Assembly: GCA_015232315.1 (NCBI GenBank)
Contig: JADFZZ010000021.1
Span: 2,006 to 66,005 of the forward strand
Direction of reading: 5' to 3'
DNA: 64,000 nt
Source of the DNA: SAR324 cluster bacterium
Lineage (GTDB): Bacteria > SAR324 > NAC60-12
This document shows, piece by piece, positions 3,169-54,172 of this stretch; positions within the stretch are counted from its first letter, which is position 1, and every line of letters begins with the position of its first letter. Made by a program: the position numbers and the translations under genes. The notes under the pieces are model-generated. The model searched no databases, was not told the origin of the DNA, and saw nothing but the letters and a program-made list of their open reading frames with translations.

Positions 3169-4514
3169 GCGATTCCGGTCATGGAACGTTTCACCTGAGC
3201 GATGCTGGATTCCAAAGTGGCGACCAACTCATCACATTCACTCTCTGTAATGACAAATGGGGGGGAAATCAATATGTGATCCCCATCCTTGCCTGTTCCT
3301 GTACCAAACCGACCTCTGAGAATCAGCCCGTTATCGAGAGCTTTCTGAACCACTTGTTCGGTGAGTTTCATGGAACGGGGAAACGGTTGATGCGTTGTTT
3401 GATCCTGAACAAATTCAATCCCGATCAGCAGACCCTTACCACGGACATTACCAATGAGAGGCTCTCGCCCAGCCAGTTTTTCCAGTTCTTTTTTCAGATA
3501 AAGCCCCATGGAGGCGCAACGCTCAATCAGATTATGTCGCACGATGTAGTTCTGAACAGCCAGGGCCGTGGCACAACTGACAGGATGTCCGGAGTAGGTT
3601 ACCCAGGCGGGAATGGTATCTTTATTGTTTTTAACAAATAGTTCCCATATCCGTTTATGCACAATAGTGGCTCCAATGGGTGCGTAACCACTGCTCAGGC
3701 CTTTTGCGCCTGTAATGATATCGGGGATTGCGTTCCAGTGTTCAATGCCAAAATTTTTGCCCGTTCGTCCAAATCCGGTAACCACTTCTTCGGAAATAAA
3801 CAAAACATCGTATTGATCACAGATTTCCCTGATTCTTTCATAATACCCAGGAGGCGGGACAATCCCGCTCCCTGCTCCGCCAATAATCGGTTCAGCGATA
3901 AAAGCGGCGACCGTGTCGGGGCCTTCCTTTTCGATCGTGGTTGCCAATTCATCAGCACAGGCGAGAGCACAATCCGGGTGGGTGAGTTGAAACGGACACT
4001 GATAACAATGAGGGGCGTGAATATGCGGAAAATTCAACTCGTAAGGCGCCATCACATCCCGTTGCACAAACACGCTCCCGGACATGGATAAGGCCGCGAC
4101 CGTCCGTCCGTGATAACTATGCCAACGGCCAATGATCTTCCATTTTTGGCTATTTCCCTGTTCAATATGATAGTGTCTGGCGATCAGCAGTGCGAGTTCA
4201 TTCGCGACGGAGCCACCCGTGGCAAAAGCCACCCGATCCATGCCTTCCGGAGCCATGTCAATAATGACATCCGCAAGCTGTTCCTGCGATTCGTGGGCAA
4301 ATTGCATTTTGTTCACAAACGCGATTTTACGTGATTGCTCCGCCATGGCCTCCGCGATTTCAGGAACACCATGTCCAATGGAAACCACATGGGTTCCGCC
4401 AATACCATCCAGATAACGTTTGCCATCGGTGTCATAAATATAAACGCCTTCACCGCGTTCCGCGAAAGGACGAGGTTTTTTACTGAAAAAAACATGAGAT
4501 TCCGAGTGTTTCAT
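3165..4514 (-). CDS. Class-III PLP-dependent aminotransferase (omega-transaminase-like).
   Basis: 449 aa. Motifs FISEEVVTGFGRTG and DIITGAKGLSSGY (PLP lysine). There is an AAGGA RBS and an ATG start. It lies directly downstream of the megasynthase. Confidence 0.85.
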   Translation of the reverse strand: MKHSESHVFFSKKPRPFAERGEGVYIYDTDGKRYLDGIGGTHVVSIGHGVPEIAEAMAEQSRKIAFVNKMQFAHESQEQLADVIIDMAPEGMDRVAFATGGSVANELALLIARHYHIEQGNSQKWKIIGRWHSYHGRTVAALSMSGSVFVQRDVMAPYELNFPHIHAPHCYQCPFQLTHPDCALACADELATTIEKEGPDTVAAFIAEPIIGGAGSGIVPPPGYYERIREICDQYDVLFISEEVVTGFGRTGKNFGIEHWNAIPDIITGAKGLSSGYAPIGATIVHKRIWELFVKNNKDTIPAWVTYSGHPVSCATALAVQNYIVRHNLIERCASMGLYLKKELEKLAGREPLIGNVRGKGLLIGIEFVQDQTTHQPFPRSMKLTEQVVQKALDNGLILRGRFGTGTGKDGDHILISPPFVITESECDELVATLESSIAQVKRSMTGIA

Positions 4515-33488: not shown

Positions 33489-33947
33489 TTACAATATTTT
33501 TTTTTCAAAAGAAACTCCCGCTTCATTCTCGAGTCGTCGCAGTGTTTCGCCAAGATAGAACATCACATCCTGTAACGGTTTTTCATTGTCTTGCAGGAAA
33601 CGATAAAAATCGTCACTTTCCAGATACAGTAACGTACATTTTTCCAAGCATAAAATCGTATATTTCGCAGGTTGGGGGGTGAGCAATTCGAAGCACCCCC
33701 AATACTCACCCTTTTGCAGGATTCCATATTCATTTTCAAGGCCGATCTGACACCGACCATCAATCAACATAAACAGTTTTGTGTTCATTCGGTCTTTTTC
33801 TGTCACCATGGTTTCCGCTTCAATTATTAACAGATGCAGAAATTCACTGATTGTGACCAGATATTCCTCTGGAATCCATTGAAACAGAGGAATTTGTTTC
33901 AACCATTCAATTTTATCGATTTTCAGCAATTTCGGGGTGTCATTCAT
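33489..33947 (-). CDS. Stand-alone cyclic-nucleotide-binding (CAP effector) domain protein with no DNA-binding domain.
   Basis: 152 aa. cNMP-binding fold motifs LFMLIDGRCQIG...GEYWGCFELL. Overlaps the upstream gene by 4 nt (ATGA). Confidence 0.7.
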   Translation of the reverse strand: MNDTPKLLKIDKIEWLKQIPLFQWIPEEYLVTISEFLHLLIIEAETMVTEKDRMNTKLFMLIDGRCQIGLENEYGILQKGEYWGCFELLTPQPAKYTILCLEKCTLLYLESDDFYRFLQDNEKPLQDVMFYLGETLRRLENEAGVSFEKKIL

Positions 33948-36900
33948 TCCGGTATTTCCTGCTCATGAGAGATTTGAATTGCCAGACGAATCAGGTGCTG
34001 ACTGGAGGACTGGGCCCATTCCTTCATTTCCCGCTTATACAAATCCGGATCCAGAACAGATAGTCCCCAAATTGCTGTTTCCTGAATTAACGAATCAGAA
34101 TCTCTGGCAAGTTGTTGGATGTCAGCGATATCATCAGTCTGTTGTTCATTGACAAGGTGTTTCAACGCCAGACTGCGTGTCCAGGAACGAAAAGTGTTTT
34201 GAGTGTCAAACGCAATCTGACGAATCCATTTCTGGGAGGCTTGTCTTTTGGGAAAAGATTGTTTCATTTTTTTTATCAGTAGGTCCAATTCAAATTCCAG
34301 TAAAACGCCTTCAAGCCATTCAAACTCAGTCAAATCAGAATATTTTCGTAATACGACTGCCACGTCATTCTTATCTGTTTTTGATAATGAAATGTTCGGA
34401 AAACGATAACTCTGAAATTCCCAATCCCTCATGCGACTGTCCGGTTCCGCAATTCCCAGTAATATAAAAATTCTGGTGCGGTTATAGGTGACATCCTTTG
34501 CCAGGGATCGCCGAAGTTCCAACATCGAATCATCGATTTTGAGATCTTTATAGGCGGTAAGCACAAGTTTTAAGTCATTTATTTCAATTTTTATCCATGA
34601 CTCCAGATGTTCTCTTATAATTTCCTGGTTGAGCAGAGGTGTTCGTTGCAAGGCACGCAGTATCTCAGAACGTATTGTCCCATCCGTAACCGAAGAACCC
34701 TTTAAGAGGAGTTCACGCTGGCTACGTTTGGAAACAGAGCCTAAGGCCTGTGCGGCTTTCAGTCTTCTAGCCTTTAGCTCTGCGGCATCAAGCAGAATTT
34801 CAACAAACCAATCCACACTTGCTGAGTCATAGGCGGCCACATATTCCGGAGTTCGCAGATAATCCATGAAAGTGATTTTTTCCAGGGCATCTCTGGCCAT
34901 TCTGAAAACCAGGCCTGTCGAGTTATCCAGTAAAGGCACAACATATTCTGCCAGGGCCGTGGGCTTGCATCGTGCAAGAGCCCAGATCGCTGTTTCCTGC
35001 TGGATATCATGGTTTGCCTTCAACGCGTGTACAATATCATTGCCTAAGTGTGTCAATTGCATGTCTCCTATCATATAAAGAGCACAGGCTTTTGTCCAGG
35101 ACGCCGTATACTGATCGGACCGTTGAATGATTTCACGCAAACGTTCTTCTCTCCCCAAAGTCTCAGTAGGAAATATTGCCCGCAATTGAGTCAGCCTGGT
35201 TTCATCGTCCAGCTCCTCCAGCAGTGGAAATAACATTTTTTCCAAGGATTTCGGCAACAACACAGCCAGACTATGGATGACCTCCCTGTTGTCTTTCCCT
35301 GAAAGGTACAACTCGAAAGTCGATTTTATTTTTTGTCTGGGATAAATGAAGCTCATCAGCAGAAAAATACGTTCAACATTTTTCCTGATTTCATTCCGTA
35401 ACGCATTGACCAGCAATTTTCCAGAAAGGATATCGCCAATGTCACGGATTGCGGCCAATGTCCAGACAGCGTCCTTCACTTCATCCTTAATCCGATCCTG
35501 AATCTCAGTGATTTTCTTCCTGGGTAGAGAGTATTCCCGTTTTTGCAGGGATTCATAGATATGATGACGAACATCTTCATCGGGATAATCAAAATTTTCC
35601 ACGAGTATTCGCAAACTCTGCTCATCTTTCATTTTCCCGAACAGGAACACCAACTTGGAAAGCAGTGCTTCCGATTGATCGGGACTATAAAACCGTTCTT
35701 TAAGGAGCGGAACCACGGTTTTACCACCATTGATCAATGCTCTGGTCGCAGAATGATACAAAGCTGGAATTTCCAGCGAGTCAATGACCACAGGCCATAA
35801 TTTTTCATGGCCCATGGTTCCTGCCGCTCTAATTGCGGATTTCCGAACGTTGATATCCGGATCTTTCAATAAAATCAACAGGGTGTGATAGTAGCCTGAA
35901 ATCCCCACTTTCTCCAGAATTTTACACACAAATTTCCGGTCCGACGGATTCGCGGACACAATCAACTGGTTCAACTTTTCCCCGGCGGCTACAGCACCTG
36001 TCAGGCCGCCGCTTTTGAGTAATCCGATAAAAGCCCCTTTTCTGACGTGTACTGAAGAATCAGTCAGGGCAGACAAAACCTTATTGAAGGTCTCCATGTT
36101 GGTGGAATCACCCAGAATAGCCATTGTTTCCAAGATGACGCCCCTGACATTCGGTTCAGGTTCTGTGTCTAGCAGTGACTCCAGATCCCAGAGCAATCCT
36201 GTAACAGCGAATTGTTGGATCAGTCTGATCACTTCCAAGCGAACATCAGGATCAGAATGAGATAGATAGTGTTTTAGAAAAGATTCTAATTCAGGATCTT
36301 TAATATTTCCCAACGCACCCAGAATCAGAACAATTTGACTTGGTAATGAATCAGGCAATATTTCCTTCAGATATTGAATATTGGAGGCGTCTTTCAGCTC
36401 AGAATCAATAATCCCATGATGCTGAAATGATTCTTTCAATAATTTCTGATATTTTTTGCTCAAATCATAAATCCCGCCTAACCATAGCACCGAAATGACC
36501 AGGGCGGCTGTCAGCAGGGCATACACCATGAGAGAAAAATAGTAAGAAACCGCAATTAAAACAATTCCTGTAAGGCCAGCGGCAAACCTTATGACAATTG
36601 TTTCCGCAAGGGTTTGGGTTTGATCGCGATCTCCGGGGGATAAAAACTCAAATAATTTTTCTGAAGAAGGTTTGAATAAAGAACTATGCAGAAATCTCTC
36701 CATAAACCGGATGGTACAAATCAACACGAAAATCAGATTTTCACCCGCGGATAATAAGCCCAGGAATACTACCACTCCGGACCCGATGACCAGTGAAATG
36801 GGCAACACTGCCAATTTCACAAACAGATTCAATTGTGCGGGCCACTTTGTTGTCCACACATGATACAACAGATTGACAGCGCCAATGGAGGCCATGAAAT

Positions 36901-37693
36901 AAGCGAGGAAAACCGCGAAATCAGGAGGATATATGAATTGATTCTGAGCTCTTTTGAAGAAAGAAAGATCAATCAGATAATAGCTGATAATAGACAGACT
37001 CAATACGGCAAATACTGTTTGAATGTAAGTATCCCGGAAGAGTTCACGAACTGTTCTGCTCGGATAAGATACTTTTTTTATGATTTTGATTTGCTGAGTC
37101 TGGTGGCTGTTCAGAAGGTAAATTGAGAGGCCCCAGCCAATCATGATGCCTACAAAGGATAATAGAAACAGATACGGCGTACCCATGATTTTCAATAGCC
37201 ATGGTATGCTGAGTCCGCCCATAATGATCGCGATGATTTCGCCTGTTTCCAATATGGGACGCAGATTTTTGATTTGACGGACATTAAAAATTTTTGGAAC
37301 AAGTAATTCCCAGTAGAGTAAATATCCCATCACAAACTCTACCTCAAACCAGACCAGCGCGACAAAAACAGTCCATTTCTCAACACGGAGCGTCACCAAC
37401 CCGAAAACCAGCAATGTCATGAACGCAAACCCACCAATCCATAACATCAGCAGGGTCCGCACCGAAAAACTCCTTCTGAGGCGTAAAAAAATCCAGCCGG
37501 TGAGCGGGATGACAATCGCAAGCGAGGCATAAACCAGTGGCAGTTTATCCGCGCCATAACGGACAATAAACAGGGTTTGTGCGGCTGTGCCTGTATAGAT
37601 CCAGGGCACTCCCATGAACATAAAAGAGAACAATACGAGTAACAGTGTTGTGGATTGTTCTTCTGGATGAATCAATTTATCGAGCCATTTCAT
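33944..37693 (-). CDS. 1249-aa fusion protein: an N-terminal 12-TM transporter-like domain (MFS/TLC nucleotide-transporter-like) joined to a C-terminal HEAT/armadillo (PBS-lyase-like) repeat domain.
   Basis: About 12 hydrophobic helices in the first 430 aa. Downstream are repeated motifs of the type DPDVRLEVIRLIQQF, DPDINVRKSAIRAAGTMG and DEDVRHHIYESL, typical of HEAT repeats. ATGA overlap with the ABC transporter gene. Confidence 0.55.
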   Translation of the reverse strand: MKWLDKLIHPEEQSTTLLLVLFSFMFMGVPWIYTGTAAQTLFIVRYGADKLPLVYASLAIVIPLTGWIFLRLRRSFSVRTLLMLWIGGFAFMTLLVFGLVTLRVEKWTVFVALVWFEVEFVMGYLLYWELLVPKIFNVRQIKNLRPILETGEIIAIIMGGLSIPWLLKIMGTPYLFLLSFVGIMIGWGLSIYLLNSHQTQQIKIIKKVSYPSRTVRELFRDTYIQTVFAVLSLSIISYYLIDLSFFKRAQNQFIYPPDFAVFLAYFMASIGAVNLLYHVWTTKWPAQLNLFVKLAVLPISLVIGSGVVVFLGLLSAGENLIFVLICTIRFMERFLHSSLFKPSSEKLFEFLSPGDRDQTQTLAETIVIRFAAGLTGIVLIAVSYYFSLMVYALLTAALVISVLWLGGIYDLSKKYQKLLKESFQHHGIIDSELKDASNIQYLKEILPDSLPSQIVLILGALGNIKDPELESFLKHYLSHSDPDVRLEVIRLIQQFAVTGLLWDLESLLDTEPEPNVRGVILETMAILGDSTNMETFNKVLSALTDSSVHVRKGAFIGLLKSGGLTGAVAAGEKLNQLIVSANPSDRKFVCKILEKVGISGYYHTLLILLKDPDINVRKSAIRAAGTMGHEKLWPVVIDSLEIPALYHSATRALINGGKTVVPLLKERFYSPDQSEALLSKLVFLFGKMKDEQSLRILVENFDYPDEDVRHHIYESLQKREYSLPRKKITEIQDRIKDEVKDAVWTLAAIRDIGDILSGKLLVNALRNEIRKNVERIFLLMSFIYPRQKIKSTFELYLSGKDNREVIHSLAVLLPKSLEKMLFPLLEELDDETRLTQLRAIFPTETLGREERLREIIQRSDQYTASWTKACALYMIGDMQLTHLGNDIVHALKANHDIQQETAIWALARCKPTALAEYVVPLLDNSTGLVFRMARDALEKITFMDYLRTPEYVAAYDSASVDWFVEILLDAAELKARRLKAAQALGSVSKRSQRELLLKGSSVTDGTIRSEILRALQRTPLLNQEIIREHLESWIKIEINDLKLVLTAYKDLKIDDSMLELRRSLAKDVTYNRTRIFILLGIAEPDSRMRDWEFQSYRFPNISLSKTDKNDVAVVLRKYSDLTEFEWLEGVLLEFELDLLIKKMKQSFPKRQASQKWIRQIAFDTQNTFRSWTRSLALKHLVNEQQTDDIADIQQLARDSDSLIQETAIWGLSVLDPDLYKREMKEWAQSSSQHLIRLAIQISHEQEIPE

Positions 37694-39288
37694 GTCACCA
37701 ACTTTCCTTCTTCCATCCTGATCTGTTGATCTGCGAGATCATAATAATGATCATCATGTGAAACCACAATCACGATCTTCCCCCTGGCTTTTAACTGTGG
37801 AAGAAATTCATGATAAAACGCATCCCGAAACACGGGATCCTGATCGGCGGCCCATTCATCGAACACATAGACCGGTTTTTCTTCAATCAAGGCCAGTATC
37901 AAGGCCAGTCGACGTCGCTGGCCTGAAGATAAACTGTAATTTGAAAATTTATCTTCGTGAAATTCAGTTTTATGATCCAGGTGCATTTTAGACAACAATT
38001 CTTTCATTTGATCGGTATTTACGGGCTGGTCAGAATAAACCCTGTCAAACAGATGATAATCAGAAAATACCGCGGAAATCCATTCGCGCTGAACTCCCGC
38101 GGGTATGAGATGGGTGTTTCTGTAAACAGCGCCCTTACCTGGCGTATATAATCCCGTGAGCACTTTCACTAACGTAGATTTTCCGCTGCCATTGCCGCCA
38201 GTGATGAAATAAATATTGCCCGGTTGAAAGGTCAGGTTTATCGGCCCCAGGGTGAACAGGTGTTTCTTCTGAGCATCAAGATATTCAAACTGGATCTCTT
38301 CAAACCGGATCTCAGTCAACTCTTCCTGAACAAACGCTTCAGTGCCGGTCAAGGATTCCTGTCGTAAGTCCATAATTTCATCTTCCAACTCAAGGATCTT
38401 CCGCACAGAAAGGTTTGCAGTGGTTACCAGCGGCACAGCCTCCATCAAACGCCATAAGGGAATATATAAAACAATAGCGACCGCGGCGATCATGACCTCT
38501 TTGGTGATAACGCCGAACGTGGGCAATACATACACCACAATGATGATCAGAAAATTCCAGAACAGGAGGGTAAAGAGGTAATTCTTGTCAAATTCGGTTC
38601 CTACCTTTATTTTGACATCCCTCATTTGATCCAGTTCACGACACAATTCAAGATGATAGTAATCATCATTTTTCGCGTCATTCATGCGCAGTTCCTTAAA
38701 ACCGAAAATCTGATGCTGAATCGCGTTGAAGAGTTGGCGTTCCTGCTCTCGGCCTTTCTCAATAAAGGTTTGAATACTTGTCTGATGCAGATAATAAACA
38801 ACGATACAAACCAGCATAATAAGGGCAGTGATCAGCGCGACCTTGAACGAGATCCAGGCCAGAAAAATCAGAACCCCCAGAAAGATCACAAAATCGGTGA
38901 GCAGATAAGCTAATACATGGGAGGCATCAAGAATAACATCCATATCATAGGTTAACACATTGTTGATCTGGGATTTTTCAATTTTCTCAAAATCCCGCAA
39001 AGAGATTTTTCGTAAATGATCCAGTATTCCGTTGCGTATTTTTTCAAGAATTTCGTGAACCATTTGAAGAAGCTGGTTCTGTTGAAAACGATAGCTGACC
39101 ATCCACAATATCCAGCCTATAATGAACAGATTCGGGCGTATGGATATTTCCTGATTTTCATAATAGGCGATAGAACCAGCCAGAAAAGAAAACAGCCAAC
39201 TCATCAATCCCCCGGTGAGAATGGAGGATCCTATCAATAAACGAAATTTTTCAGGATTATGTTCCTGAAGTAAACGAAGGAGTTCCAT
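37690..39288 (-). CDS. ABC exporter half-transporter (TMD-NBD) of the SyrD/cyclic-peptide-transporter type.
   Basis: N-terminal 6-TM domain. Walker A GGNGSGKST. Signature LSSGQRRRLAL. Walker B region VYVFDEWAADQDPVFR, the family-typical DEWAADQDP motif. Confidence 0.85.
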   Translation of the reverse strand: MELLRLLQEHNPEKFRLLIGSSILTGGLMSWLFSFLAGSIAYYENQEISIRPNLFIIGWILWMVSYRFQQNQLLQMVHEILEKIRNGILDHLRKISLRDFEKIEKSQINNVLTYDMDVILDASHVLAYLLTDFVIFLGVLIFLAWISFKVALITALIMLVCIVVYYLHQTSIQTFIEKGREQERQLFNAIQHQIFGFKELRMNDAKNDDYYHLELCRELDQMRDVKIKVGTEFDKNYLFTLLFWNFLIIIVVYVLPTFGVITKEVMIAAVAIVLYIPLWRLMEAVPLVTTANLSVRKILELEDEIMDLRQESLTGTEAFVQEELTEIRFEEIQFEYLDAQKKHLFTLGPINLTFQPGNIYFITGGNGSGKSTLVKVLTGLYTPGKGAVYRNTHLIPAGVQREWISAVFSDYHLFDRVYSDQPVNTDQMKELLSKMHLDHKTEFHEDKFSNYSLSSGQRRRLALILALIEEKPVYVFDEWAADQDPVFRDAFYHEFLPQLKARGKIVIVVSHDDHYYDLADQQIRMEEGKLVT

Positions 39289-40882
39289 TGCTGATTTGCC
39301 CTTGCTCCATGGTTAATATTGTATCGGCAAGATGAAAGAAACGATCATCATGACTAATGACAAGAATCACTTTGTTTTGCTGTTTTAAGCGAGGAAGCAG
39401 TGTTTCATAAAAGTACAAACGAAATTTATGATCCTGTTCCGCGGCCCATTCATCAAAAATCACAATAGGCATATCCTCAAGCAATGCCCCAATCATCGCG
39501 AGTCTTTTTCTTTGCCCGGCGGAGAGCTTTATATTAGAAAATTTTCCATTTCCCCAATCCGTTTTGTTGTTGAGAGCCATCTCATCCAACAGCGAATAGA
39601 TCTGTTCTGCCTGAATATTTTCAATGCCGTATAACCCTTCAAACAAATGATAATCCGAAAAAATACAGGATGATAAATAGCGATAATCGCGCAAAGAGAC
39701 GATGGATTCATTCAAGAAAATCTGTCCTGCGGATGGTTCATAAAGTCCGGTGATGATTTTAACAAGCGTCGATTTTCCACTGCCATTCCCCCCAACCAGA
39801 AAGGTGATATGACCCGATCTCAATGTCATATTGACTGGTCCGATGACAAAGCCTTCCTCTTCCGGATATTGAAACTGAACATTCTCCAGACGCAGTGAAT
39901 GGATCTCAGGATTGATTTTGGGACGGATAGAGACATAGTCCGACAGTTCGGGTTTCTGATTGCGTAACATTTCATCCAGCTTATACAACCGATCCAGTGC
40001 GGCATCGCCCGTTGTGATAAAGGGCAAGGACGTATTGAACATTCTGACAGGCCCCCAGCACATGACAATCGCTGTCATGATTTCAGTTACAGTCTGTAAT
40101 GGCAGAAATATGGAAAAAATGAAAATTTCTGTAGCCAGAAACATAAAAAAGGCGCCATCCAGAAATAATTCAGTTTTACCGAATAACCGTGAAGAATTTA
40201 TTCCCTGATTTTTTAGTTGCTTGGCCAGGGGCATCAATTCATTGGAAAAAAAGAAATTACTTTTTTTTTCGCTTAATTTGAGTTCCTTAAAGCCATCCAG
40301 CAACTGCCCCATCACATGAAAGAAGCGGGATTCGGTGTCTGACATGGATTTCTGCTCACCCGCTATCAAATATCGACTTCCTGAGTAAACCCCCAGACCC
40401 ATGAGAAAAGTAATGAACACCGCGATCGCGACAGAAGAGGAAAGATGGACAACATACAGGAAACAGAATCCCACAAGCGTATAGGTCTGTAGCAGATTGA
40501 TATGATAACGCGCGGCCCGGGAAATGGACCGTGCGTCCTTGGTCATGGTCATGTAGAGATCTGAAATCTGATACCGTTCCAACTCAGACAGTTCCGACTG
40601 GCGTAACGCGTTCCCGATGCGTTGTCTCACTTGCTGCATCGTAAAATGAATTAATCGCGTATTCCTGTTCAGCGCAAACCATTTACTGCTTACATAAATG
40701 ATGGAACATACCAGATACACTCCTAGAAAATAAATATCAGATACATCCCACTGCAGGTCTCTTGTGGAATCATTAATAACAATCACCAGTCCGCCACCGG
40801 AGATCCCCGCGATCGCGGACAAACTCAACAATTTGATTTTTTCTTTCTGATTCTCTTTGCCAAACAGATTTGTCAGATTCAT
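39257..40882 (-). CDS. ABC exporter half-transporter (TMD-NBD) of the SyrD/cyclic-peptide-transporter type, partner of the ORF at 37690-39288.
   Basis: Walker A GGNGSGKST. Signature LSAGQRKRLAM. Walker B region IVIFDEWAAEQDHKFR. Overlaps the downstream paralogue by 32 nt. Confidence 0.85.
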   Translation of the reverse strand: MNLTNLFGKENQKEKIKLLSLSAIAGISGGGLVIVINDSTRDLQWDVSDIYFLGVYLVCSIIYVSSKWFALNRNTRLIHFTMQQVRQRIGNALRQSELSELERYQISDLYMTMTKDARSISRAARYHINLLQTYTLVGFCFLYVVHLSSSVAIAVFITFLMGLGVYSGSRYLIAGEQKSMSDTESRFFHVMGQLLDGFKELKLSEKKSNFFFSNELMPLAKQLKNQGINSSRLFGKTELFLDGAFFMFLATEIFIFSIFLPLQTVTEIMTAIVMCWGPVRMFNTSLPFITTGDAALDRLYKLDEMLRNQKPELSDYVSIRPKINPEIHSLRLENVQFQYPEEEGFVIGPVNMTLRSGHITFLVGGNGSGKSTLVKIITGLYEPSAGQIFLNESIVSLRDYRYLSSCIFSDYHLFEGLYGIENIQAEQIYSLLDEMALNNKTDWGNGKFSNIKLSAGQRKRLAMIGALLEDMPIVIFDEWAAEQDHKFRLYFYETLLPRLKQQNKVILVISHDDRFFHLADTILTMEQGQISNGTPSFTSGT

Positions 40883-40930
40883 ACAATCACAATATTTTTC
40901 AGGAAAACCAGGGGGTAAACGTAACGAAGA

Positions 40931-41100
40931 ATCCCCTGCTGTAAATAATTTGGTGATGAAATCCTGTGGCCCTCCACGATGTCATCCCCGTGAAAACGGG
41001 GATCCATGAGTGCGCCGATGGATTCCGTGTCAAGCACGGAATGACACCGTGCGATGGCTTGAATCGGTTGCCGTCACCAGAAAATTTACAGCAACAAAAA
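40931..41100 (+). repeat. 170-bp MITE-like structured repeat, copy 1.
   Basis: About 93% identical to 61591-61760. Imperfect ~20-bp terminal inverted repeats (TGCTGTAAATAATTTGGTGA ... TCACCAGAAAATTTACAGCA). Internal hairpins ATCCCCGT-GAAA-ACGGGGAT and TTCCGTG-TCAAG-CACGGAA. Confidence 0.6.
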
Positions 41101-41108
41101 TCCAGAGA

Positions 41109-41537
41109 TTAAAAGGTTTTCATAATTTTTCTGGAACCCTGAATGCATTCACAAAGGATAGTGATAATATTCAGTCCAACCTCCACATATTCATTGGCGA
41201 AATCCAGAAACGCGACAGCGTTTAAAGTCAGCAATTCGCTATCTTCATGCGCTATCATGGTTATTTTGCTTTCGTGAGGAGCCAGAATCGCCAATTGTCC
41301 TACGTATGCGCCACGGTCCAGCACCTCCAGACATTTTTCCTGTCCGTATATACCGATCTGTCCTGAGAGAACCAGAAACAGGTTTGTCATGGTATCACCA
41401 TTCCGGATCAACACTTCTTCCGAGTAAACCTTCAATTCTTCAAACCGGATTGCCATTTCTCCCAGCATTTCATCAGAAATTCCGGAAAAAACCTGGATGT
41501 TCTTTAAATACAGCACACGTTCAATTATTGGTCTCAT
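41109..41537 (-). CDS. Stand-alone cyclic-nucleotide-binding domain protein.
   Basis: 142 aa. cNMP-binding motifs LFLVLSGQIGIYG...GAYVGQLAIL. It sits at the head of the exporter operon. Confidence 0.7.
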   Translation of the reverse strand: MRPIIERVLYLKNIQVFSGISDEMLGEMAIRFEELKVYSEEVLIRNGDTMTNLFLVLSGQIGIYGQEKCLEVLDRGAYVGQLAILAPHESKITMIAHEDSELLTLNAVAFLDFANEYVEVGLNIITILCECIQGSRKIMKTF

Positions 41538-42036
41538 AGAATCCCTATATTTTGCTTTGATTTTCGTGAAACACTTCTGCTAAGTATCAGATCAAAAATC
41601 TTTCACCATTCTGAATTATTCCGTTTTCCTTAAAGGATCTCTCAGAGAGATGCCCTGACAAGAGCTGAATTACCATCACTGTTCTGTAACAATCCAGCGA
41701 TTTGTGTTCCTTTTTTTACGTGTGAAATGAAACCATAATTTGATCCAATTCAATTTTTAGAAGGTTTGTGGCCATTTTCATTGTCACTATCCTGTAATAC
41801 GGAAATTGACCGGCAATGAATTCGCGCCTGAAGGGATATCATGAAAGTGAATAGCCGGGAGAAAACACTGGCAATTGAGAGATAATTATGAAAGATAAGC
41901 GGACACACAAGAAGTTACGGCCTCCAATATCCGATTTGTCCCTGGCCACGTTGATGATATGGTGGAGTCGCGGAACCCATACCTTTCCAGTATCGCTTTT
42001 AAATGACAATTTGGTCATTCATTACGACGGACCACA

Positions 42037-42118
42037 ATCCGAACGGTGGATGTCGTTGATTGGATACAACCACCGGAATCCGAACGGTGGATGTCGTTGA
42101 TTGGATACAACCACCGGA
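42037..42118. repeat. Perfect 41-bp tandem duplication (2 copies).
   Basis: The unit atccgaacggtggatgtcgttgattggatacaaccaccgga is repeated head-to-tail in intergenic DNA. Confidence 0.6.
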
Positions 42119-42182
42119 TCGAGGAATCCCTGGAGACCATTCTCGATGAATGCAAACACCGCGGTATCACAAAGGAGCATTT

Positions 42183-42413
42183 ATGAATACAGCGACCATT
42201 CACATACCTGAAACATTACCCAGTGAGATAGTACAAGGATTGATTCAAGAATTTGAAAAAATGCTTGAATCAAAAGCTAATGAAGTGAATAGCCAGGAAT
42301 GGGCGAACTTAGTCGAAAGTGAGCAATCTCAAGCATGGTTGGAAGCTATGGTTGCTCAAGTGGATATTGAACACAGCGCAGAGAAAACAGAGAAGGGTGG
42401 ATGGAACAGATAA
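42183..42413 (+). CDS. Putative antitoxin of a type II TA pair (76 aa).
   Basis: AAGGAG RBS. Small and acidic. Its stop overlaps the start of the downstream RelE/ParE-like ORF. Family not recognised. Confidence 0.35.
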   Translation: MNTATIHIPETLPSEIVQGLIQEFEKMLESKANEVNSQEWANLVESEQSQAWLEAMVAQVDIEHSAEKTEKGGWNR

Positions 42414-42700
42414 AATCTTATCGCTCATCTCAATTTAAAAAATCCTTTGAAAAACTTCCTTTATCTGTGCAAGAGCAGGCTAAAAAAGCCTACGCTCTTT
42501 GGAGCGATAACCCTTTTCATAATTCCCTTGAATTCAAGGTTATCAATAAGAAATTAGATGTTTATTCCGCAAGAATTAGCCTGAATTGGAGAGTGTTAGG
42601 ACTTTTTTAAGGAGGCTTCCCCACCAGCGGTAGGGAACCACAAAATATTCGTAACGATTGGAAGAAAGGAGCAAGTATATGATTATTCGCACGTTATCCG
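42401..42700 (+). pseudogene. RelE/ParE-like toxin gene interrupted by a frameshift in a T6 run.
   Basis: The track ORF at 42401-42610 encodes ...VYSARISLNWRVLGLF and then stops. The next frame continues as ...KEASPPAVGNHKIFVTIGRKEQVYD, which resembles the conserved RelE C-terminal ...IGHRKDVY. The T run is at about 42603-42608. The reconstructed protein would be about 101 aa. Confidence 0.4.
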
Positions 42701-43065
42701 ATATTGAACAGACTGACCGTGATGTTGCCTGGGGGAATGGACAAAGCCGAAGATTTCTCATTGCCAGTGACGGAATGGGTTTCACGTTGACGGATACTGT
42801 CGTTCTGGCGGGTTCAGAATCAAGATTGCAATATCGTAATCACGTTGAAGCTTGTTATTGCATTGAAGGCGAAGGGGAAGTTGAGGTGGATGGTAAAATT
42901 TACCCGATCAAGACCGGCACAATGTATGCGCCAAATCAACACGATATTCATTATCTTCGAGCGACTAAGACAATGCGTCTGGTGTGTGTGTTTTCGCCTG
43001 CGTTACAAGGCCCTGAATCCCATCAACTGCAACACACAGACAATCCTTCCGCCTCAAGTTATTAA
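42679..43065 (+). CDS. Ectoine-synthase (EctC)-like cupin.
   Basis: 128 aa. MIIRTLSDIEQTDRDV...EACYCIEGEGEVEVDGKIYPIKTGTMYAPNQHDIHYLRATKTMRLVCVFSP aligns along its length with Halomonas EctC (MIVRNLEEA..TDR...EAVYCIEGEGEVE...DGKIWPIKPGDIY.LDQHDEH.LRA.KTM.L.CVF.P). AAAGGAG RBS. Confidence 0.85.
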   Translation: MIIRTLSDIEQTDRDVAWGNGQSRRFLIASDGMGFTLTDTVVLAGSESRLQYRNHVEACYCIEGEGEVEVDGKIYPIKTGTMYAPNQHDIHYLRATKTMRLVCVFSPALQGPESHQLQHTDNPSASSY

Positions 43066-43087
43066 CGGCATCGCTTCCGGGTTTCGC

Positions 43088-46000
43088 ATGAATTTTTCTC
43101 AGACTTCAATGACTGATTTTATAGAGCTTGTTCGTACACAGGCTTCCAAAAATCCGCACAATATTGCCGTTTATCACCGTAATCAGATACTCAACTATGA
43201 ACAGCTTGAGCGTCGTTCTAATCAACTCGCTCATTATTTACTGAGTCTGAAGATCCAACCTGAGCAGTTGATCGGTTTATGTCTGCCCCGTTCGATCCTG
43301 TTGACGGAGGCCATGCTTGGAATTCTAAAGGCCGGAGCGGCTTATGTGCCGTTAGATCCTGCTTATCCACGCAAACGTCTGGAAGACATGCTGGAAGACA
43401 GTCAACTGAATATTGTGCTCCTGAATGATGCCACCGATCATCTGATTTCATCGTTAAAAACCCTCAATTCTGAACTGCAAAAAATTCATCTGGCATTGAA
43501 CTGGGAGATCATTGCGTCATTCCCTTCAACGCCTCCCGATATCACCTTCCGTGACGACCAACTTGCCTATTGTTTATACACATCAGGTTCCACAGGAAAA
43601 CCCAAAGGGGTGCTGATGGAACACAAACCGTTGTCCAATTTAATCCACTGGCATCTTAAAAATCGTGTGACTCCCGCACGTCAATTGCAATTCGCACCTC
43701 TGAATTTTGACATTTCTTTTCAGGAGATTTTCGCGACCTGGTGTTCAGGTGGCAGTTTGTTTATCATAGACGATTCTGTCAGACGCAATCCATCCGCATT
43801 ATTGGATTTTATCTGCACCCACGCCATAGAAAAACTCTATTTGCCATTTACGGCCCTGCAACAATTGTCTATTATCGCACACGACAGTGATCACTACCCT
43901 GTGCAATTGCGTGAGGTGATTACCGCTGGAGAACAATTGCAGATTACTCCGGCAATTCGGGAACTCTTTACACGTACCGGTGCCCGGTTGCATCATCACT
44001 ATGGCGCAACGGAGTGTCAGGATGTTACCGCACTGGATCTGACAGGTGATCCGCAAGATTGGCCCTTACTCCCCTGCATTGGAAAAGCGATTGATAATAT
44101 ACAGATCCATATTCTGGATTCGCGGTTATCTCCGGTAGGCAGGGATGAAACAGGTGAACTTTATGTGGCGGGAGATGGACTGGCACGTGGTTATCTGCAT
44201 CGGCCGGAACTGAATGAGGCTCGATTTATCAACACACCAGATATCGGACGCCTTTATAAAACCTGCGACAGAGCCCGATACGGCACCGATGGACAGATAG
44301 AATTATTAGGACGATCTGATCATGCGGTGAAAATTCGTGGATTCAGCGTGGAGTTGGGGGAGATTGAAGCGATTTTACTGCAACATAAAGATATAGATCA
44401 GGCAGTGGTAGTGGCACATCAAGATGATTCCGGTCATAAACGACTGCTGGCCTATGTGGTGTTACACAAAAACAAAATACTATCCACCCAGCAATTGCAT
44501 GAACATCTGGAACAACGTTTACCTCAATACATGATTCCGGCAATGTTTATTCTCTTGGACGGCCTGCCTATGACGCCAACCGGCAAAGTCAACCGTGGTG
44601 ACTTACCACCACCTTTTATGCAGGTGCGTCCGGAAGTGGATCACAGTTTTGAATCGGCACGTACCCCCCTGGAAGAAACCTTGACTACAATCTGGCAAAA
44701 CGTGTTGAACATTGAACAGATCGGAATCCATGATGATTTTTTTTCACTGGGAGGAGATTCCTTTTTGCTGATTACATTATTCAGCACGATAAAGAATCAA
44801 CTGGGAACGGATGTCCCACTGGCTGATTTGCTACAAGAACTCAACATTGCCGATCTGGCCAACTTATTACAGCATAAGGCCCCGCATCCAAGCCATACCG
44901 CTTTGTCAGTCAATGAACTACAGGGCTATGCTATCTGTCCGCTTCAATCTCAGCTTCCGGCAGTTACAGAACTGAATAAGCCAAAAAATATTTTATTAAC
45001 AGGTGCGACGGGATTTCTGGGTTCATTCCTGTTACAGGAATTGCTGGAGAAAACCGATGCTGATATTTATTGTCTGGTGCGGGGCAAGGACCCCTCACAG
45101 GCGTTACAACGTTTGCTCGACAGTCAGAAACAGCGTGAGTTATCCCTTTCAACAGATTTCCACAAACGACTGCATGTGGTGTGTGGTGATATGGCCAAAC
45201 CCCTTTTGGGGGTAACCCGAAAACAATGGAAGCATCTGACTGAACTGATTGACAGTGTTTATCATGCCGCGGCAAATATTAACATGTTATACCCTTATCC
45301 GGTACTTCACGCCATCAATGTTCAGGGAACACAGGAGATTATTAAGTTTTCCACGCATTCACGTTGCAAAACCTTGCACTATATTTCCAGCACAGCCATT
45401 TTTGAAGCTCAGGGATTTTTTCATCGACAACAGCCGATTCCTGAAAATATTGATATTCAGGAATGTGCCCGTATTTACGGCGGTTATGCTCAAAGTAAAT
45501 GGGTTGCTGAAAAACTGTTGCATCAGGCTCGGGAAAAAGGGCTTGCTGTGAGTATCTATCGTTTGGGGATGTTGACAGGACACAGCCGTTCCGGCGTATC
45601 CAATATCAACGACATGATGTGCAAACTGCTCAAACAGTTTGTGGTACAAAAACGCATCCCTGAATTGACCACTCCACTGGATATGACTCCGGTTGATTAT
45701 GTAGCTCAGGTGATAGTCCATTTATCACAACAGACTCCGGAAAATGGCTACTGTTTTCATGTTGTGAATCCTCAACCGCCTTCTTTTTTTGAATTATACC
45801 GGTTCTTCAACCAATTGGGATATCCTCTGCAAATGATCAATTATGCTCAATGGATTGATCAACTTGAAAACCTGTCACTGGATTCAAAGGAAAACGCTTT
45901 GGGAACGATGTTGCCCATTTTTACGGAAAGCGTTGAGGGCAAAACCTACCTGGAATTTTCTTCTTTATGTCAGAACTTTAATCATGATAATACTCACCTT

Positions 46001-46102
46001 GGATTAAGCAACAGTTCTATACGTTGCTCTGCGGTAACACCGGATTTGTTGTCAACCTATTTGAATTATTTTGTACGGCAGGGCTTTTTGAGCGCTCCCT
46101 AA
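43088..46102 (+). CDS. Single-module NRPS with domains A - PCP - R (thioester reductase).
   Basis: A domain: LAYCLYTSGSTGKPKGV, FDISFQEIF, YGATE, TGKVNRGDL. PCP: FFSLGGDSFLL. R domain: LTGATGFLGSFLL and YAQSKWVAEKLL. The upstream part of the track ORF (42845-43087) overlaps ectC and was discarded. Confidence 0.9.
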   Translation: MNFSQTSMTDFIELVRTQASKNPHNIAVYHRNQILNYEQLERRSNQLAHYLLSLKIQPEQLIGLCLPRSILLTEAMLGILKAGAAYVPLDPAYPRKRLEDMLEDSQLNIVLLNDATDHLISSLKTLNSELQKIHLALNWEIIASFPSTPPDITFRDDQLAYCLYTSGSTGKPKGVLMEHKPLSNLIHWHLKNRVTPARQLQFAPLNFDISFQEIFATWCSGGSLFIIDDSVRRNPSALLDFICTHAIEKLYLPFTALQQLSIIAHDSDHYPVQLREVITAGEQLQITPAIRELFTRTGARLHHHYGATECQDVTALDLTGDPQDWPLLPCIGKAIDNIQIHILDSRLSPVGRDETGELYVAGDGLARGYLHRPELNEARFINTPDIGRLYKTCDRARYGTDGQIELLGRSDHAVKIRGFSVELGEIEAILLQHKDIDQAVVVAHQDDSGHKRLLAYVVLHKNKILSTQQLHEHLEQRLPQYMIPAMFILLDGLPMTPTGKVNRGDLPPPFMQVRPEVDHSFESARTPLEETLTTIWQNVLNIEQIGIHDDFFSLGGDSFLLITLFSTIKNQLGTDVPLADLLQELNIADLANLLQHKAPHPSHTALSVNELQGYAICPLQSQLPAVTELNKPKNILLTGATGFLGSFLLQELLEKTDADIYCLVRGKDPSQALQRLLDSQKQRELSLSTDFHKRLHVVCGDMAKPLLGVTRKQWKHLTELIDSVYHAAANINMLYPYPVLHAINVQGTQEIIKFSTHSRCKTLHYISSTAIFEAQGFFHRQQPIPENIDIQECARIYGGYAQSKWVAEKLLHQAREKGLAVSIYRLGMLTGHSRSGVSNINDMMCKLLKQFVVQKRIPELTTPLDMTPVDYVAQVIVHLSQQTPENGYCFHVVNPQPPSFFELYRFFNQLGYPLQMINYAQWIDQLENLSLDSKENALGTMLPIFTESVEGKTYLEFSSLCQNFNHDNTHLGLSNSSIRCSAVTPDLLSTYLNYFVRQGFLSAP

Positions 46103-46124: not shown

Positions 46125-47432
46125 ATGCTGAATAAATCACCAAAATCGCGTGCTTTTTTCGAACGTGCGCAAAAAGTTATTCCTTATGGTGTCAGTTCCA
46201 GTCATCGTTACTGGGGCGATTATACCCCGGTATTGCAACGTGGAAATGGAGCGTATGTGTATGATTTCGATGGCAATCGTTATATTGATTACCGTCTGGG
46301 GTTTGGGCCTGTCATTCTGGGACACGCTCATCCTTACGTCAATCAGCGAGTCATGGAAGCGATCCAGCAGGGGGTTACATTTGCGGCGACCCAACCCTAT
46401 GAAGTCAGTGTCGCGGAACGCATTATCGCTATGTGCCCGTTTGTTGACATGGTACGACTGGACAACACCGGTTCCGATGCGACACGGCATGCGTTACGCC
46501 TTGCCCGTGGTTACACCGGACGAGACCTGGTGGTAAAATTTGAAGGTGCCTATCATGGCGATTACGATTACATGTTATGGACCACTCCGGACAGCATGAA
46601 AAGTCAGGTAGGCAACCGCAACCGGCCAATTCCCCATAAAACCAGTTTGGGTGTGCCCGATCTGCTGGCGCAGTTGCTCCTGCCCGCCGTATGGAATGAT
46701 CGCGAAGGGATCACCGCCTTATTGCAGGAAAAAGGTGATGCCATTGCGGCTATTATTGTTGAACCCATCCTGGCTAATGCCGGAGGTTTAATGCCTGCGC
46801 CAGGATTTCTGGAATTTTTACGCACACAATGTGATCAATATGGCATTGTCCTCATTTTTGATGAAGTCAAAACTGGATTTCGGATTGCACCTGGTGGCGC
46901 CAGTGAATATTTTGGCGTGATTCCGGATATTGTCACCTATGCCAAAGCAATGGCCAATGGATATCCTGTCTCTGCCGTGGGCGGAAAACGCAAGATCATG
47001 ATGGCACTGGCGCCTGGCAAAGTCGTTCATGCGGGAACCTACAACGGAAACGTCGTGGTCACTTCCGCCGCTGACGCAACCCTGGAATATATGCAGACTC
47101 ATGATGTATTTGGTCATCTCAATCAGATTGGCCGGCAACTCATGGATGGACTGGGCGAAATTCTTTCCCGCCACAGTATCCCGCATCATATCCATGGAGT
47201 GCCCGCTTTATTTGGATTGACGTTGTCCACAAACAATCCCACGGATTGGCGTCAGGTGGTGGATACCAATCTGGAGTTATCAGAGAAACTCCTCATGGAA
47301 TTGGTCAATGCCGGTATCATGACTGATTCTGATCCCCAGCAAACCTGGTATGTGTGTGACGCCCATACCACCGAGGATATTGCCGAGACACTTGATAAAT
47401 TTGAAATTGCCTTACGCAATGCAAAGAATTAA
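46125..47432 (+). CDS. Class-III aminotransferase of the glutamate-1-semialdehyde aminomutase (HemL)-like subfamily.
   Basis: Motifs RLDNTGSDATRHALRLARGYTGRDLVVKFEGAYHGDYD, IFDEVKTGFR and TYAKAMANGYP (PLP lysine region). Confidence 0.85.
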   Translation: MLNKSPKSRAFFERAQKVIPYGVSSSHRYWGDYTPVLQRGNGAYVYDFDGNRYIDYRLGFGPVILGHAHPYVNQRVMEAIQQGVTFAATQPYEVSVAERIIAMCPFVDMVRLDNTGSDATRHALRLARGYTGRDLVVKFEGAYHGDYDYMLWTTPDSMKSQVGNRNRPIPHKTSLGVPDLLAQLLLPAVWNDREGITALLQEKGDAIAAIIVEPILANAGGLMPAPGFLEFLRTQCDQYGIVLIFDEVKTGFRIAPGGASEYFGVIPDIVTYAKAMANGYPVSAVGGKRKIMMALAPGKVVHAGTYNGNVVVTSAADATLEYMQTHDVFGHLNQIGRQLMDGLGEILSRHSIPHHIHGVPALFGLTLSTNNPTDWRQVVDTNLELSEKLLMELVNAGIMTDSDPQQTWYVCDAHTTEDIAETLDKFEIALRNAKN

Positions 47433-53265: not shown

Positions 53266-54172
53266 GAAACCTTTTTGTAAAAATTAGATATATTTTCTGA
53301 CAGTAAGCCGAATCATGGCAATTCGTACCATGTTTTCAGCAGTTTCAATAAGAATTTCAAAGTCTTTAGCAAGTCGTCGGAATCCTCCAAACCAGGCGAG
53401 AGTTCGTTCAACAATCCAACGTTTGGGTAAAATGGTCATTTTCCCATCGTTGGAGTTTTTGGGTTGATCCTTGACGGTTTTGGAAATATCAAGGCGTTTT
53501 CCCAGTTGTTCCCGGACAAAGTCCACGGAGGTTCCCTGGTAGCCGCCATCGGCGGAAAAAGCGTCAAGCGAAGGATAACGTTCCAGCGCTTCCTGGAAGA
53601 CACGGCATCCCTCCACCGTGTCGGATTTATTGGCGGCATGTACGATGATATGGAGCAGGTTTCCCAGAATGTTGACACAGATATGGCGTTTGCGGCCTTT
53701 CACTTTTTTCCCGCCGTCAATGCCACGATCGTCGCTATCATATGGGGTTTTCACACTTTGGGAATCGACGATTCCATAGGAAGGTGTGGCGGAACGCCCT
53801 TGTTTTTGACGGGCAAGGGAGTTGAGAGCATCCAGGATTTTTTGCCATGTTCCATTCCGACACCACTTGCGATAGTGGTCATAGACCGTTTGCCAAGGCG
53901 GAAAATCATGAGGAAGATACTCCCATTGACAACCCGTTTTGTTGATATAAAAGATGGCATTGATAATCGTTCGTCGGCTGTGAATATGGGAAGACCCCCG
54001 ACCATCCTTGGGACGGAGAAAGGGTTCGATCACGGACCATTCGGCATCGGTAACGTCGCTGGGATACATAGTACCTCGTAGGGAGTAGGTTGGAAATACC
54101 CCCTTTATACCATCTTTATGACAATTGATGAAGAATCTAAAAAATAACTTTTTTTTTACCAAAAGGCTTCTT
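53266..54172 (-). mobile_element. IS5-family insertion sequence (about 0.9 kb) with imperfect ~19-bp terminal inverted repeats.
   Basis: Left end AGAAACCTTTTTGTAAAAA. The reverse complement of the right end is about AGAAGCCTTTTGGTAAAAA. It contains a single DDE transposase gene. Confidence 0.65.
53284..54069 (-). CDS. IS5-family DDE transposase (IS1031/IS427-like, with the N-terminal DUF4096-type region).
   Basis: MYPSDVTDAEWSVIEPFLRP...INKTGCQWEYLP...WQTVYDHYRKW is typical of IS5 transposases. The C-terminal DDE region is ...RWIVERTLAWF.... The track ORF extends 31 codons upstream into the inverted repeat. The ATG at 54069 is preferred. Confidence 0.8.
   Translation of the reverse strand: MYPSDVTDAEWSVIEPFLRPKDGRGSSHIHSRRTIINAIFYINKTGCQWEYLPHDFPPWQTVYDHYRKWCRNGTWQKILDALNSLARQKQGRSATPSYGIVDSQSVKTPYDSDDRGIDGGKKVKGRKRHICVNILGNLLHIIVHAANKSDTVEGCRVFQEALERYPSLDAFSADGGYQGTSVDFVREQLGKRLDISKTVKDQPKNSNDGKMTILPKRWIVERTLAWFGGFRRLAKDFEILIETAENMVRIAMIRLTVRKYI

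Follow-up and report, generated by a model that had tools for sequence, protein, structure and literature searches.

A putative SAR324 operon joining a TIGR01194-type ABC exporter pair to a divided NTT-HEAT-cNBD module

The ATP-binding cassette (ABC) half-transporters of the TIGR01194 family are of the cyclic-peptide export type represented by SyrD, PvdE and YojI, which export peptides and siderophores. They are typical exporters within biosynthetic gene clusters (SyrD, PvdE), and the characterised members are known as homodimers encoded by single genes. The subject of this study is a locus in a genome of the SAR324 cluster (GCA_015232315.1, contig JADFZZ010000021.1, positions 2,006 to 66,005, a stretch of 64,000 nt referred to here as the window), in which two such half-transporters are encoded together with a protein consisting of an NTT-like transporter domain and HEAT repeats and with two small proteins of the cyclic-nucleotide-binding domain (cNBD) fold.

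Fusions of NTT and HEAT domains form a monophyletic group that is widespread among bacteria (Major et al. 2017, Genome Biol Evol 9:480; PMC5381601), and NTT-HEAT proteins with or without a cNBD were reported by the same authors in Cyanobacteria, Chlamydiae, Deltaproteobacteria, Bacteroidetes and oomycetes. Three-domain NTT-HEAT-cNBD fusions and versions with a duplicated cNBD exist, a separate cNBD gene a few nucleotides downstream of NTT-HEAT has already been described, and fusion and fission have occurred repeatedly at the HEAT-cNBD junction (PMC5381601). Control of the NTT-HEAT-cNBD proteins by cAMP was proposed, and no NTT-HEAT protein has been characterised (PMC5381601); a full-text literature search for "NTT-HEAT" likewise returned no functional work. 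A further system of relevance is HetC, an ABC exporter of Nostoc PCC 7120 with a cNBD-fold domain that binds ppGpp in vitro and is required in vivo (PMC10986499).

The window locus comprises five co-directional open reading frames (ORFs) on the minus strand. They are given below in order of transcription, with the two parts of the fourth gene product listed directly after it.

41109-41537, minus strand: cNBD-A, 142 aa, first gene
39257-40882, minus strand: ABC1, 541 aa, second gene
37690-39288, minus strand: ABC2, 532 aa, third gene
33944-37693, minus strand: the NTT-HEAT protein, 1249 aa, fourth gene
36404-37693, minus strand: NTT-like (TLC/ATP:ADP-translocase-type) 12-helix domain of the major facilitator superfamily (MFS), residues 1-430
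33944-36403, minus strand: HEAT-repeat solenoid, predicted to be cytoplasmic, residues 431-1249, no fused cNBD
33489-33947, minus strand: cNBD-B, 152 aa, fifth gene

The original prediction had described these genes as an exporter operon bracketed by two stand-alone cNBD proteins, and the ORF listing of the window agrees with it on the five co-directional genes, on their order and sizes, and on their overlaps of 32, 4 and 4 nt. ABC1 and ABC2 overlap by 32 nt, ABC2 and the NTT-HEAT gene by 4 nt (ATGA), and the NTT-HEAT gene and cNBD-B by another 4 nt, the start codon of cNBD-B overlapping the stop of the NTT-HEAT gene (ATGA). A detail absent from that prediction is a gap of 226 nt between cNBD-A and ABC1. 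The five genes probably constitute one operon, and the ATGA overlap of ABC2 with the NTT-HEAT gene argues for co-transcription and translational coupling at this locus.

We consider it likely that this operon is a lineage-specific one which joins an ABC exporter of the TIGR01194 type to an NTT-HEAT-cNBD(-cNBD) module that has been disassembled into separate genes. The components of the locus are ordinary, and the linkage between the ABC genes and NTT-HEAT is confined to one lineage. The NTT-HEAT/cNBD architecture is already known; what is new is the fully split form, the degenerate phosphate-binding cassettes of the cNBDs, and the operon-level union with a TIGR01194 pair.

The NTT-HEAT protein and the two small cNBD proteins

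The 1249-aa protein had been predicted to be a transporter-HEAT fusion, with PF03219 as a guess for its N terminus. The N-terminal 428 aa alone gave no Pfam match even at E<=10 (neither PF03219 nor MFS_1). The AlphaFold2 model of residues 1-430 (pLDDT 87.3, pTM 0.86) contained 12 long helices in a 6+6 arrangement, and the top-ranked Foldseek matches of this model in the PDB were AtNTT1 (9j3m, 9j3l) and Chlamydia pneumoniae NTT1 (9j3n). These NTT matches had TM scores of 0.75-0.78 and E values of 1.7e-11 to 4.9e-10, compared to 2.4e-6 for the best other MFS protein. The family profile also matched C. pneumoniae NTT1 (9j3n) at E=5.7e-34 and Arabidopsis NTT1 (9j3j) at E=1.6e-29. C-terminal to the NTT domain, HEAT_2 and HEAT (PF13646/PF02985) scored 109.8 and 41.9 bits, respectively. 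Taken together, the 12-helix model, the matches to NTT structures and the HEAT repeats identify the 1249-aa fusion, on sequence and modelled structure, as a divergent member of the NTT-HEAT family. The guess made for its N terminus was therefore sound in pointing to an NTT/TLC-type MFS fold, and an attempt to refute it by finding something other than a transporter fold failed against the confident 12-helix NTT-type model. The canonical NTT ATP/ADP translocators (AtNTT1 and C. pneumoniae NTT1; PDB 9j3j-9j3o) are the best structural match to residues 1-430, although with a structural-alignment identity of only 13-17%, and unlike the window protein they are single-domain proteins with neither a HEAT nor a cNBD partner. 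For AtNTT1, Trentmann et al. 2000 are reported to have named K155, E245, E385 and K527 as residues relevant to the substrate.

Apart from a 98%-identical copy in a second SAR324 metagenome-assembled genome (MAG), the relatives of the 1249-aa protein are of ~1100 aa and share 21-30% identity with it. Those scanned carry TLC (PF03219) and/or MFS_1 together with HEAT repeats, and nearly all have a C-terminal cNMP_binding domain; PF03219 was found in homologues at 28-30% identity. Residues 28-960 of the query are colinear with residues 32-971 of P0002, a homologue that has the NTT-HEAT-cNBD fusion and retains the cassette, up to the start of the P0002 cNBD, and query residues 981-1216 align again to P0002 residues 691-922. 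Self-alignment (E=4e-11) revealed an internal duplication of a ~250-aa HEAT module (residues ~685-933 versus ~984-1238), which accounts for the extra length of the window protein (1249 versus ~1100 aa). The long form recurs in a 1303-aa NTT-HEAT protein from a Desulfobacterales MAG (L009) that aligns over query residues 8-1221.

PF00027 was the sole domain found in both small proteins, at 55.2 bits in cNBD-A and 39.6 bits in cNBD-B against a gathering score of 27.5, in agreement with the earlier description of them as cNBD-fold proteins without an output domain. A CRP/FNR-type C-terminal helix-turn-helix was not present in cNBD-A (142 aa) or cNBD-B (152 aa), and the CRP, FtrB and YeiL models matched only the N-terminal sensor part, far under their cut-offs. 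For both proteins, the alignment with the cNBD fused to P0002 begins at their first residues, with 29% identity (E=2e-15) for cNBD-A and 24% identity (E=5e-9) for cNBD-B, the latter over P0002 residues 957-1088, which constitute that fused domain. The best PDB match of cNBD-B was the third of the four cyclic-nucleotide-binding (CNB) domains of Plasmodium PKG, which is the degenerate domain and is not known to bind cGMP.

A word-indexed homology search with cNBD-A returned nothing beyond its own MAG copy; an exhaustive HMMER search of 1.84 billion representatives returned 4099 matches at E<=1e-3. Among the top matches of the exhaustive search, 15 of 25 and 31 of 50 were related to the NTT or HEAT regions of the window protein, and many were proteins of ~1200-1280 aa with two matched stretches near the C terminus. 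The NTT-HEAT-cNBD-cNBD architecture was confirmed by Pfam in all three of the proteins scanned, each of ~1200 aa (P0141, P0142 and P0144). The nearest stand-alone relative was P0139, with 39% identity, whose gene precedes that of a tetratricopeptide repeat-like protein (L031). By sequence comparison, the nearest relatives of cNBD-A are the cNBD tails of NTT-HEAT proteins, plus P0139. In view of this homology to fused tails, the small proteins are better read as detached subunits of NTT-HEAT than as the regulators bracketing an exporter that had originally been predicted, and the simplest reading of the NTT-HEAT protein, cNBD-B and cNBD-A would be a disassembled NTT-HEAT-cNBD-cNBD protein. Of the related loci with a detectable cNBD, nine had it fused and one (L012, a Myxococcota MAG) had a separate, overlapping cNBD gene. 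Since separate and fused forms are both published (PMC5381601) and recovered in related loci, the NTT-HEAT gene with cNBD-B represents a known split form, and the view that stand-alone cNBDs are unusual in such a setting did not hold.

Other affiliations of the small proteins were also considered. When cNBD-A and cNBD-B were compared with the first and second domains of the tandem-cNBD proteins, the pattern of orthology was not consistent (26 versus 23 for A and 29 versus 19 for B), in a set that had been selected with cNBD-A and was biased accordingly. TIGR03896 (cyc_nuc_ocin) comprises cNBD proteins without a DNA-binding domain which NCBIfam names as bacteriocin-type transport-associated; neither small protein is a member, cNBD-A scoring 21.5 bits against a cut-off of 161 and covering only one cNBD of the 317-position model, and cNBD-B giving no match. 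With regard to anti-phage defence, for example by Pycsar effectors, PADLOC returned generic matches only (to the cNBD part of PycTIR and to the P-loop of an ABC-type ATPase), and no Pycsar-like effector or cyclase partner was present with the window cNBDs according to PADLOC and the domain scans.

The phosphate-binding cassettes were compared in a MAFFT alignment comprising manually entered reference sequences of E. coli CRP and MloK1, ten stand-alone relatives and 131 cNBDs of NTT-HEAT relatives, with the alignments to the CNB domains of Plasmodium falciparum PKG made separately. The family cassette has the pattern GE[LM]ALL..PR[ST]A, in which Glu was kept in 125 and Arg in 119 of the 131 cNBDs. 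The corresponding stretch is GQLAIL...ESKIT in cNBD-A (Glu to Gln and Arg to Ser) and GCFELL...PAKYT in cNBD-B (Glu to Cys and Arg to Ala), and both have a Lys one position past the lost Arg. The loss of Glu and Arg from both proteins makes canonical cyclic-nucleotide gating unlikely. The original prediction had suggested cyclic-nucleotide-gated control and had itself made this dependent on the cassette residues; with both residues gone from both small proteins, canonical gating of this kind by cAMP or cGMP is not supported.

On the metagenome contig that encodes P0002 (L005), the gene directly after P0002 (3548-5746, plus strand) encodes an adenylate/guanylate cyclase domain and an AAA ATPase. 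This adjacency hints that canonical members of the family are tied to cyclic-nucleotide signalling, unlike the window locus.

The ABC pair and its linkage to the NTT-HEAT gene

Both ABC proteins scored above the curated NCBIfam cut-off of 286.2 bits for TIGR01194 (293.8 bits for ABC1 and 320.4 bits for ABC2), with matches spanning nearly the full length of the model, which bears out their earlier description as SyrD-type. ABC1 consists of a transmembrane domain and a nucleotide-binding domain (NBD; PF00005, 88.1 bits), and ABC2 was matched by both PF00005 and PF00664. The translations contain the Walker A motif GGNGSGKST in both proteins, the signature and Walker B motifs LSAGQ and IVIFDEW in ABC1, and LSSGQ and VYVFDEW in ABC2. 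No solved structure close to the ABC proteins was found at E<=1e-20. With 30% identity between them, ABC1 and ABC2 are likely to be heterodimer partners. The window pair shares the half-transporter architecture of the characterised SyrD, PvdE and YojI and has NRPS-like and PKS/NRPS (nonribosomal peptide synthetase and polyketide synthase) genes in its vicinity, but differs from them in consisting of two tandem paralogues whose 30% identity implies a heterodimer, and in sharing an operon with an NTT-HEAT module. HetC resembles the window locus in that an ABC exporter is associated with a cNBD-fold domain, the ligand of which is not a cyclic nucleotide. However, HetC belongs to the exporters that contain a peptidase (PCAT) and carries the cNBD within its own polypeptide, at the N terminus, whereas the window ABC proteins have no peptidase domain and the window cNBDs are free-standing and related to NTT-HEAT.

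The nearest non-self relative of ABC2 is P0019 (45% identity), whose gene is paired with a second ABC gene, the two overlapping by 4 nt (L007). Around P0019 the ABC pair stands alone, with no NTT-HEAT or cNBD gene nearby. The loci of NTT-HEAT relatives numbered 40 (22 from GTDB species genomes, 13 from metagenomes and 5 from exact-protein look-ups), and a SyrD-type ABC gene with both transmembrane and NBD parts was found in none of these 40 within flanks of up to 10 kb. A metagenome scan with a single protein as query found nothing. The adjacency of ABC and NTT-HEAT genes was seen only in the window and in the 98%-identical SAR324 MAG (L001). Since the ABC pair is found alone elsewhere and NTT-HEAT elsewhere is found without ABC, the comparison separates two units: the ABC heterodimer as a conserved unit of its own and the NTT-HEAT/cNBD set as another, with a union that is specific to the window lineage as far as these loci indicate. 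No evidence was found for the proposed action of the cNBDs on the ABC pump, and the linkage is not conserved outside this lineage.

The next-best relatives of ABC2, P0020 to P0023, are proteins of 790-930 aa whose ABC part is 32-34% identical. The names of two of them give Candidatus Electrothrix as the source. In the precomputed Pfam lists of these proteins, other P-loop or KAP-type NTPase families appear in addition, which is unusual for this ABC family.

The same five genes, with identical overlaps and spacing, are present in an independent assembly (SAR324 MAG GCA_015231535.1, locus L001), with protein identities of 96-100%. Between the window and L001, pN/pS was 0-0.23 across all five genes (small counts), with 0.23 being the value for cNBD-B; the 131 residues of cNBD-A that are also covered by L001 are identical there, with one synonymous nucleotide difference. 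These low ratios suggest that the five genes are not decaying, and all five look to be under purifying selection.

In comparison with the family of Major et al., the window locus shares an N-terminal 12-transmembrane NTT/TLC domain followed by HEAT repeats, with a cNBD encoded by the next gene. It differs in that the NTT domain is too divergent for a direct match to PF03219 or MFS_1, the HEAT region has an extra duplicated module, both cNBDs are separate genes, one of them upstream of the intervening ABC pair, and both cNBDs are without the cassette Glu and Arg that are otherwise conserved. It also differs in the apparent translational coupling of the gene to a TIGR01194 ABC exporter, which was seen in 0 of 40 other loci.

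The intergenic repeat and the genomic surroundings

The 226-nt gap between cNBD-A and ABC1 had a folding energy of -77.8 kcal/mol (z = -3.6). It contains one of two copies of a dispersed repeat resembling a miniature inverted-repeat transposable element (MITE).

40935-41098, minus strand: MITE-like dispersed repeat of ~164 nt, in the 226-nt gap between cNBD-A and ABC1
61594-61757, minus strand: second copy of the MITE-like repeat, >95% identical to the copy at 40935-41098

The repeat has terminal inverted repeats (GCTGTAAAT.../...ATTTACAGC) and a three-hairpin core, and no Rfam family matched it at threshold. Minus this insert, the gap would be ~60 nt. The idea of a riboswitch or leader in the gap was rejected, since the structured element is a dispersed one that recurs at 61.6 kb and has no match in Rfam at threshold. 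The window also contains a gene for an IS4/IS5-family DDE transposase (DUF4096 and DDE_Tnp_1) at 53284-54162 on the minus strand, which together with the MITE copies points to mobile-element activity in the region.

Upstream of the operon and divergent from it lies an NRPS-like gene of adenylation-peptidyl carrier protein-reductase (A-PCP-reductase) organisation (42845-46102, plus strand; a 1085-aa ORF), followed by a class-III aminotransferase gene (46125-47432, plus strand). As the adenylation domain begins only at residue 97 of the 1085-aa ORF, the true start probably lies downstream of the TTG listed. In the ~1.3 kb between cNBD-A and this gene (41538-42844) there was no convincing ORF, an 87-aa ORF at 42150-42413 having no Pfam match. 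The pairing of a reductase with a class-III aminotransferase recurs at 1987-4514.

Further downstream of the operon, a 4085-aa hybrid PKS/NRPS is encoded at 4551-16808 (minus strand), with AMP-binding, acyl carrier protein, ketosynthase, acyltransferase, dehydratase, methyltransferase, ketoreductase, acyl carrier protein and condensation domains. Its neighbours (16862-22267 and 1987-4514) include a second AMP-binding enzyme, a chorismate-lyase-like protein, two sulfotransferases and a HemN-like radical-SAM enzyme, as well as the terminal reductase and class-III aminotransferase. In its gene content the region resembles a cluster for the biosynthesis of a lipopeptide or polyketide that is sulfated. 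An exporter of the SyrD type suits an NRPS/PKS neighbourhood of this kind, but ~17 kb of unrelated genes lie between the operon and the megasynthase gene. Elsewhere, a fragment of an NRPS condensation-domain gene (L006, 3547-4176, minus strand) adjoins the gene for the NTT-HEAT-cNBD homologue P0003 (30% identity), a second and anecdotal case of NTT-HEAT beside secondary-metabolite genes.

Immediately downstream of the operon, after a gap of 368 nt, the segment 29915-33120 (minus strand) encodes a DUF697 protein, an SPFH/Band7 protein and two proteins without a Pfam match. All of these genes share one strand, recur in L001 with their order kept, and probably form a separate, membrane-associated operon. 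Beyond them are plus-strand genes for a 497-aa leucine-rich-repeat protein with 12 matched repeat stretches (26743-28236), a sulfatase (24716-26593) and a radical-SAM/SPASM enzyme (23215-24363); the last of these may be a maturase of the leucine-rich-repeat protein.

Competing explanations and implications

Under the reading that we favour, the operon would encode two modules. ABC1 and ABC2 would form a heterodimeric TIGR01194-type exporter for a peptide-like or nonribosomal peptide/polyketide-like metabolite, possibly the product of the neighbouring NRPS-like or PKS/NRPS genes. The NTT-HEAT protein, with cNBD-B coupled downstream and cNBD-A at the head of the operon, would constitute a split NTT-HEAT-cNBD(-cNBD). 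If the NTT domain ends in the cytoplasm, as in canonical 12-transmembrane NTTs, then the HEAT solenoid would be cytoplasmic and able to scaffold the small cNBD proteins, which may dock on it as regulatory subunits. With canonical cAMP/cGMP binding apparently lost, cNBD-A and cNBD-B would no longer respond to these nucleotides and may act either ligand-free or with a different ligand. Co-transcription would bring about the co-expression of the ABC pair and the NTT-HEAT module, perhaps for a shared membrane process and perhaps incidentally.

Several considerations weigh against this reading. The evidence for an operon consists of the overlaps and the shared strand, and consensus promoter and terminator scans were uninformative, with counts near the shuffled expectation. 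A gap of 226 nt with a strongly structured repeat separates cNBD-A from ABC1, so cNBD-A may have a transcript of its own. The identities that assign cNBD-A to the NTT-HEAT module are only 25-39%, with no clear orthology to the first or to the second of the tandem cNBDs. Since the operon was seen only once more, in a copy that is 98% identical, little can be read from the conservation of the junction between the ABC and NTT-HEAT genes. The absence of the cassette Glu and Arg need not mean that all nucleotide binding is gone, and a Lys stands beside the missing Arg in both proteins. Finally, because no NTT-HEAT protein has a known function, the regulatory-subunit model for the cNBDs is conjecture.

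The arrangement could instead be a juxtaposition without functional meaning, in which an exporter for the nearby secondary-metabolite genes landed between NTT-HEAT/cNBD genes, or the module hitch-hiked with it, so that the two share transcription only. Such an origin would agree with a linkage confined to one lineage, with the MITE-like repeat inside the operon and the IS4/5 transposase in the window, with the NRPS-like (A-PCP-reductase and aminotransferase) and PKS/NRPS genes that flank the region, and with the role of TIGR01194 pumps as typical exporters in biosynthetic gene clusters. However, the 4-nt ATGA overlap between ABC2 and the NTT-HEAT gene is a hallmark of an evolved, translationally coupled junction, all five genes appear to be under purifying selection, and ~17 kb of unrelated genes lie between the operon and the PKS/NRPS gene. 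We regard chance juxtaposition as rather unlikely, though it deserves real weight.

Non-cyclic ligands are known for cNBD-fold proteins, the ligand being a metabolite in NtcA and CprK. The window cNBDs might sense a ligand of this sort and couple the signal via the HEAT scaffold to the ABC exporter, in one regulated export complex. In line with this, HetC depends in vivo on a cNBD-fold domain for which ppGpp binding was seen in vitro (PMC10986499), both window cNBDs seem to be under purifying selection despite their degenerate cassettes, the Lys just after the lost Arg is common to both, and the 4-nt overlaps point to translational coupling from ABC2 through NTT-HEAT to cNBD-B. We nevertheless think it improbable, given the linkage of ABC to NTT-HEAT in 0 of 40 related loci and the position of cNBD-A far under the cut-off (21.5 versus 161 bits) of TIGR03896, the one curated family of cNBD proteins associated with bacteriocin-type transport. 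In its most specific form, the ABC heterodimer, the NTT-HEAT protein and the two cNBDs would be a single physical complex, with HEAT scaffolding the cNBDs against the ABC NBDs, the cNBDs sensing ppGpp or an adenine nucleotide, as HetC does a non-cyclic ligand, and the NTT-like domain moving nucleotides or reporting nucleotide status. We give this little credence, but if it were true, the NTT-HEAT family would gain its first functional lead, as a regulator of ATP-driven export or a partner in it. Equally doubtful in our view is a role of cNBD-A and cNBD-B as sensors of cAMP or cGMP through which the SyrD-type exporter, or else the HEAT protein, is gated. Both are above the Pfam threshold for the cNBD fold and flank the operon, the cassette is intact in the fused relatives, a cyclase-domain gene lies directly after the fused relative P0002, and cAMP control of NTT-HEAT-cNBD was proposed by Major et al. 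(PMC5381601). Yet the window cNBDs have lost the cassette Glu and Arg, through which the ribose and the cyclic phosphate are contacted, a cyclase domain was not detected in any of the window ORFs scanned, the homology of the cNBDs points to the NTT-HEAT module rather than to the ABC family, and the closest ABC pair elsewhere (L007) is without an adjacent cNBD.

If the locus is, as we favour, a lineage-specific union of an ABC exporter with a disassembled NTT-HEAT module, it is a natural dissection of a three- or four-domain protein, the parts of which could be easier to express and to test for interaction. It is also the sole case found of a tight operon linkage of NTT-HEAT to an ABC exporter, a possible but weak clue to function. 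The window cNBDs suggest that a cNBD in the NTT-HEAT family can lose its cyclic-nucleotide cassette and yet stay under selection, which argues against assuming cAMP control in every NTT-HEAT-cNBD member. The locus may therefore offer a convenient, pre-split entry point to the widespread and uncharacterised NTT-HEAT family.

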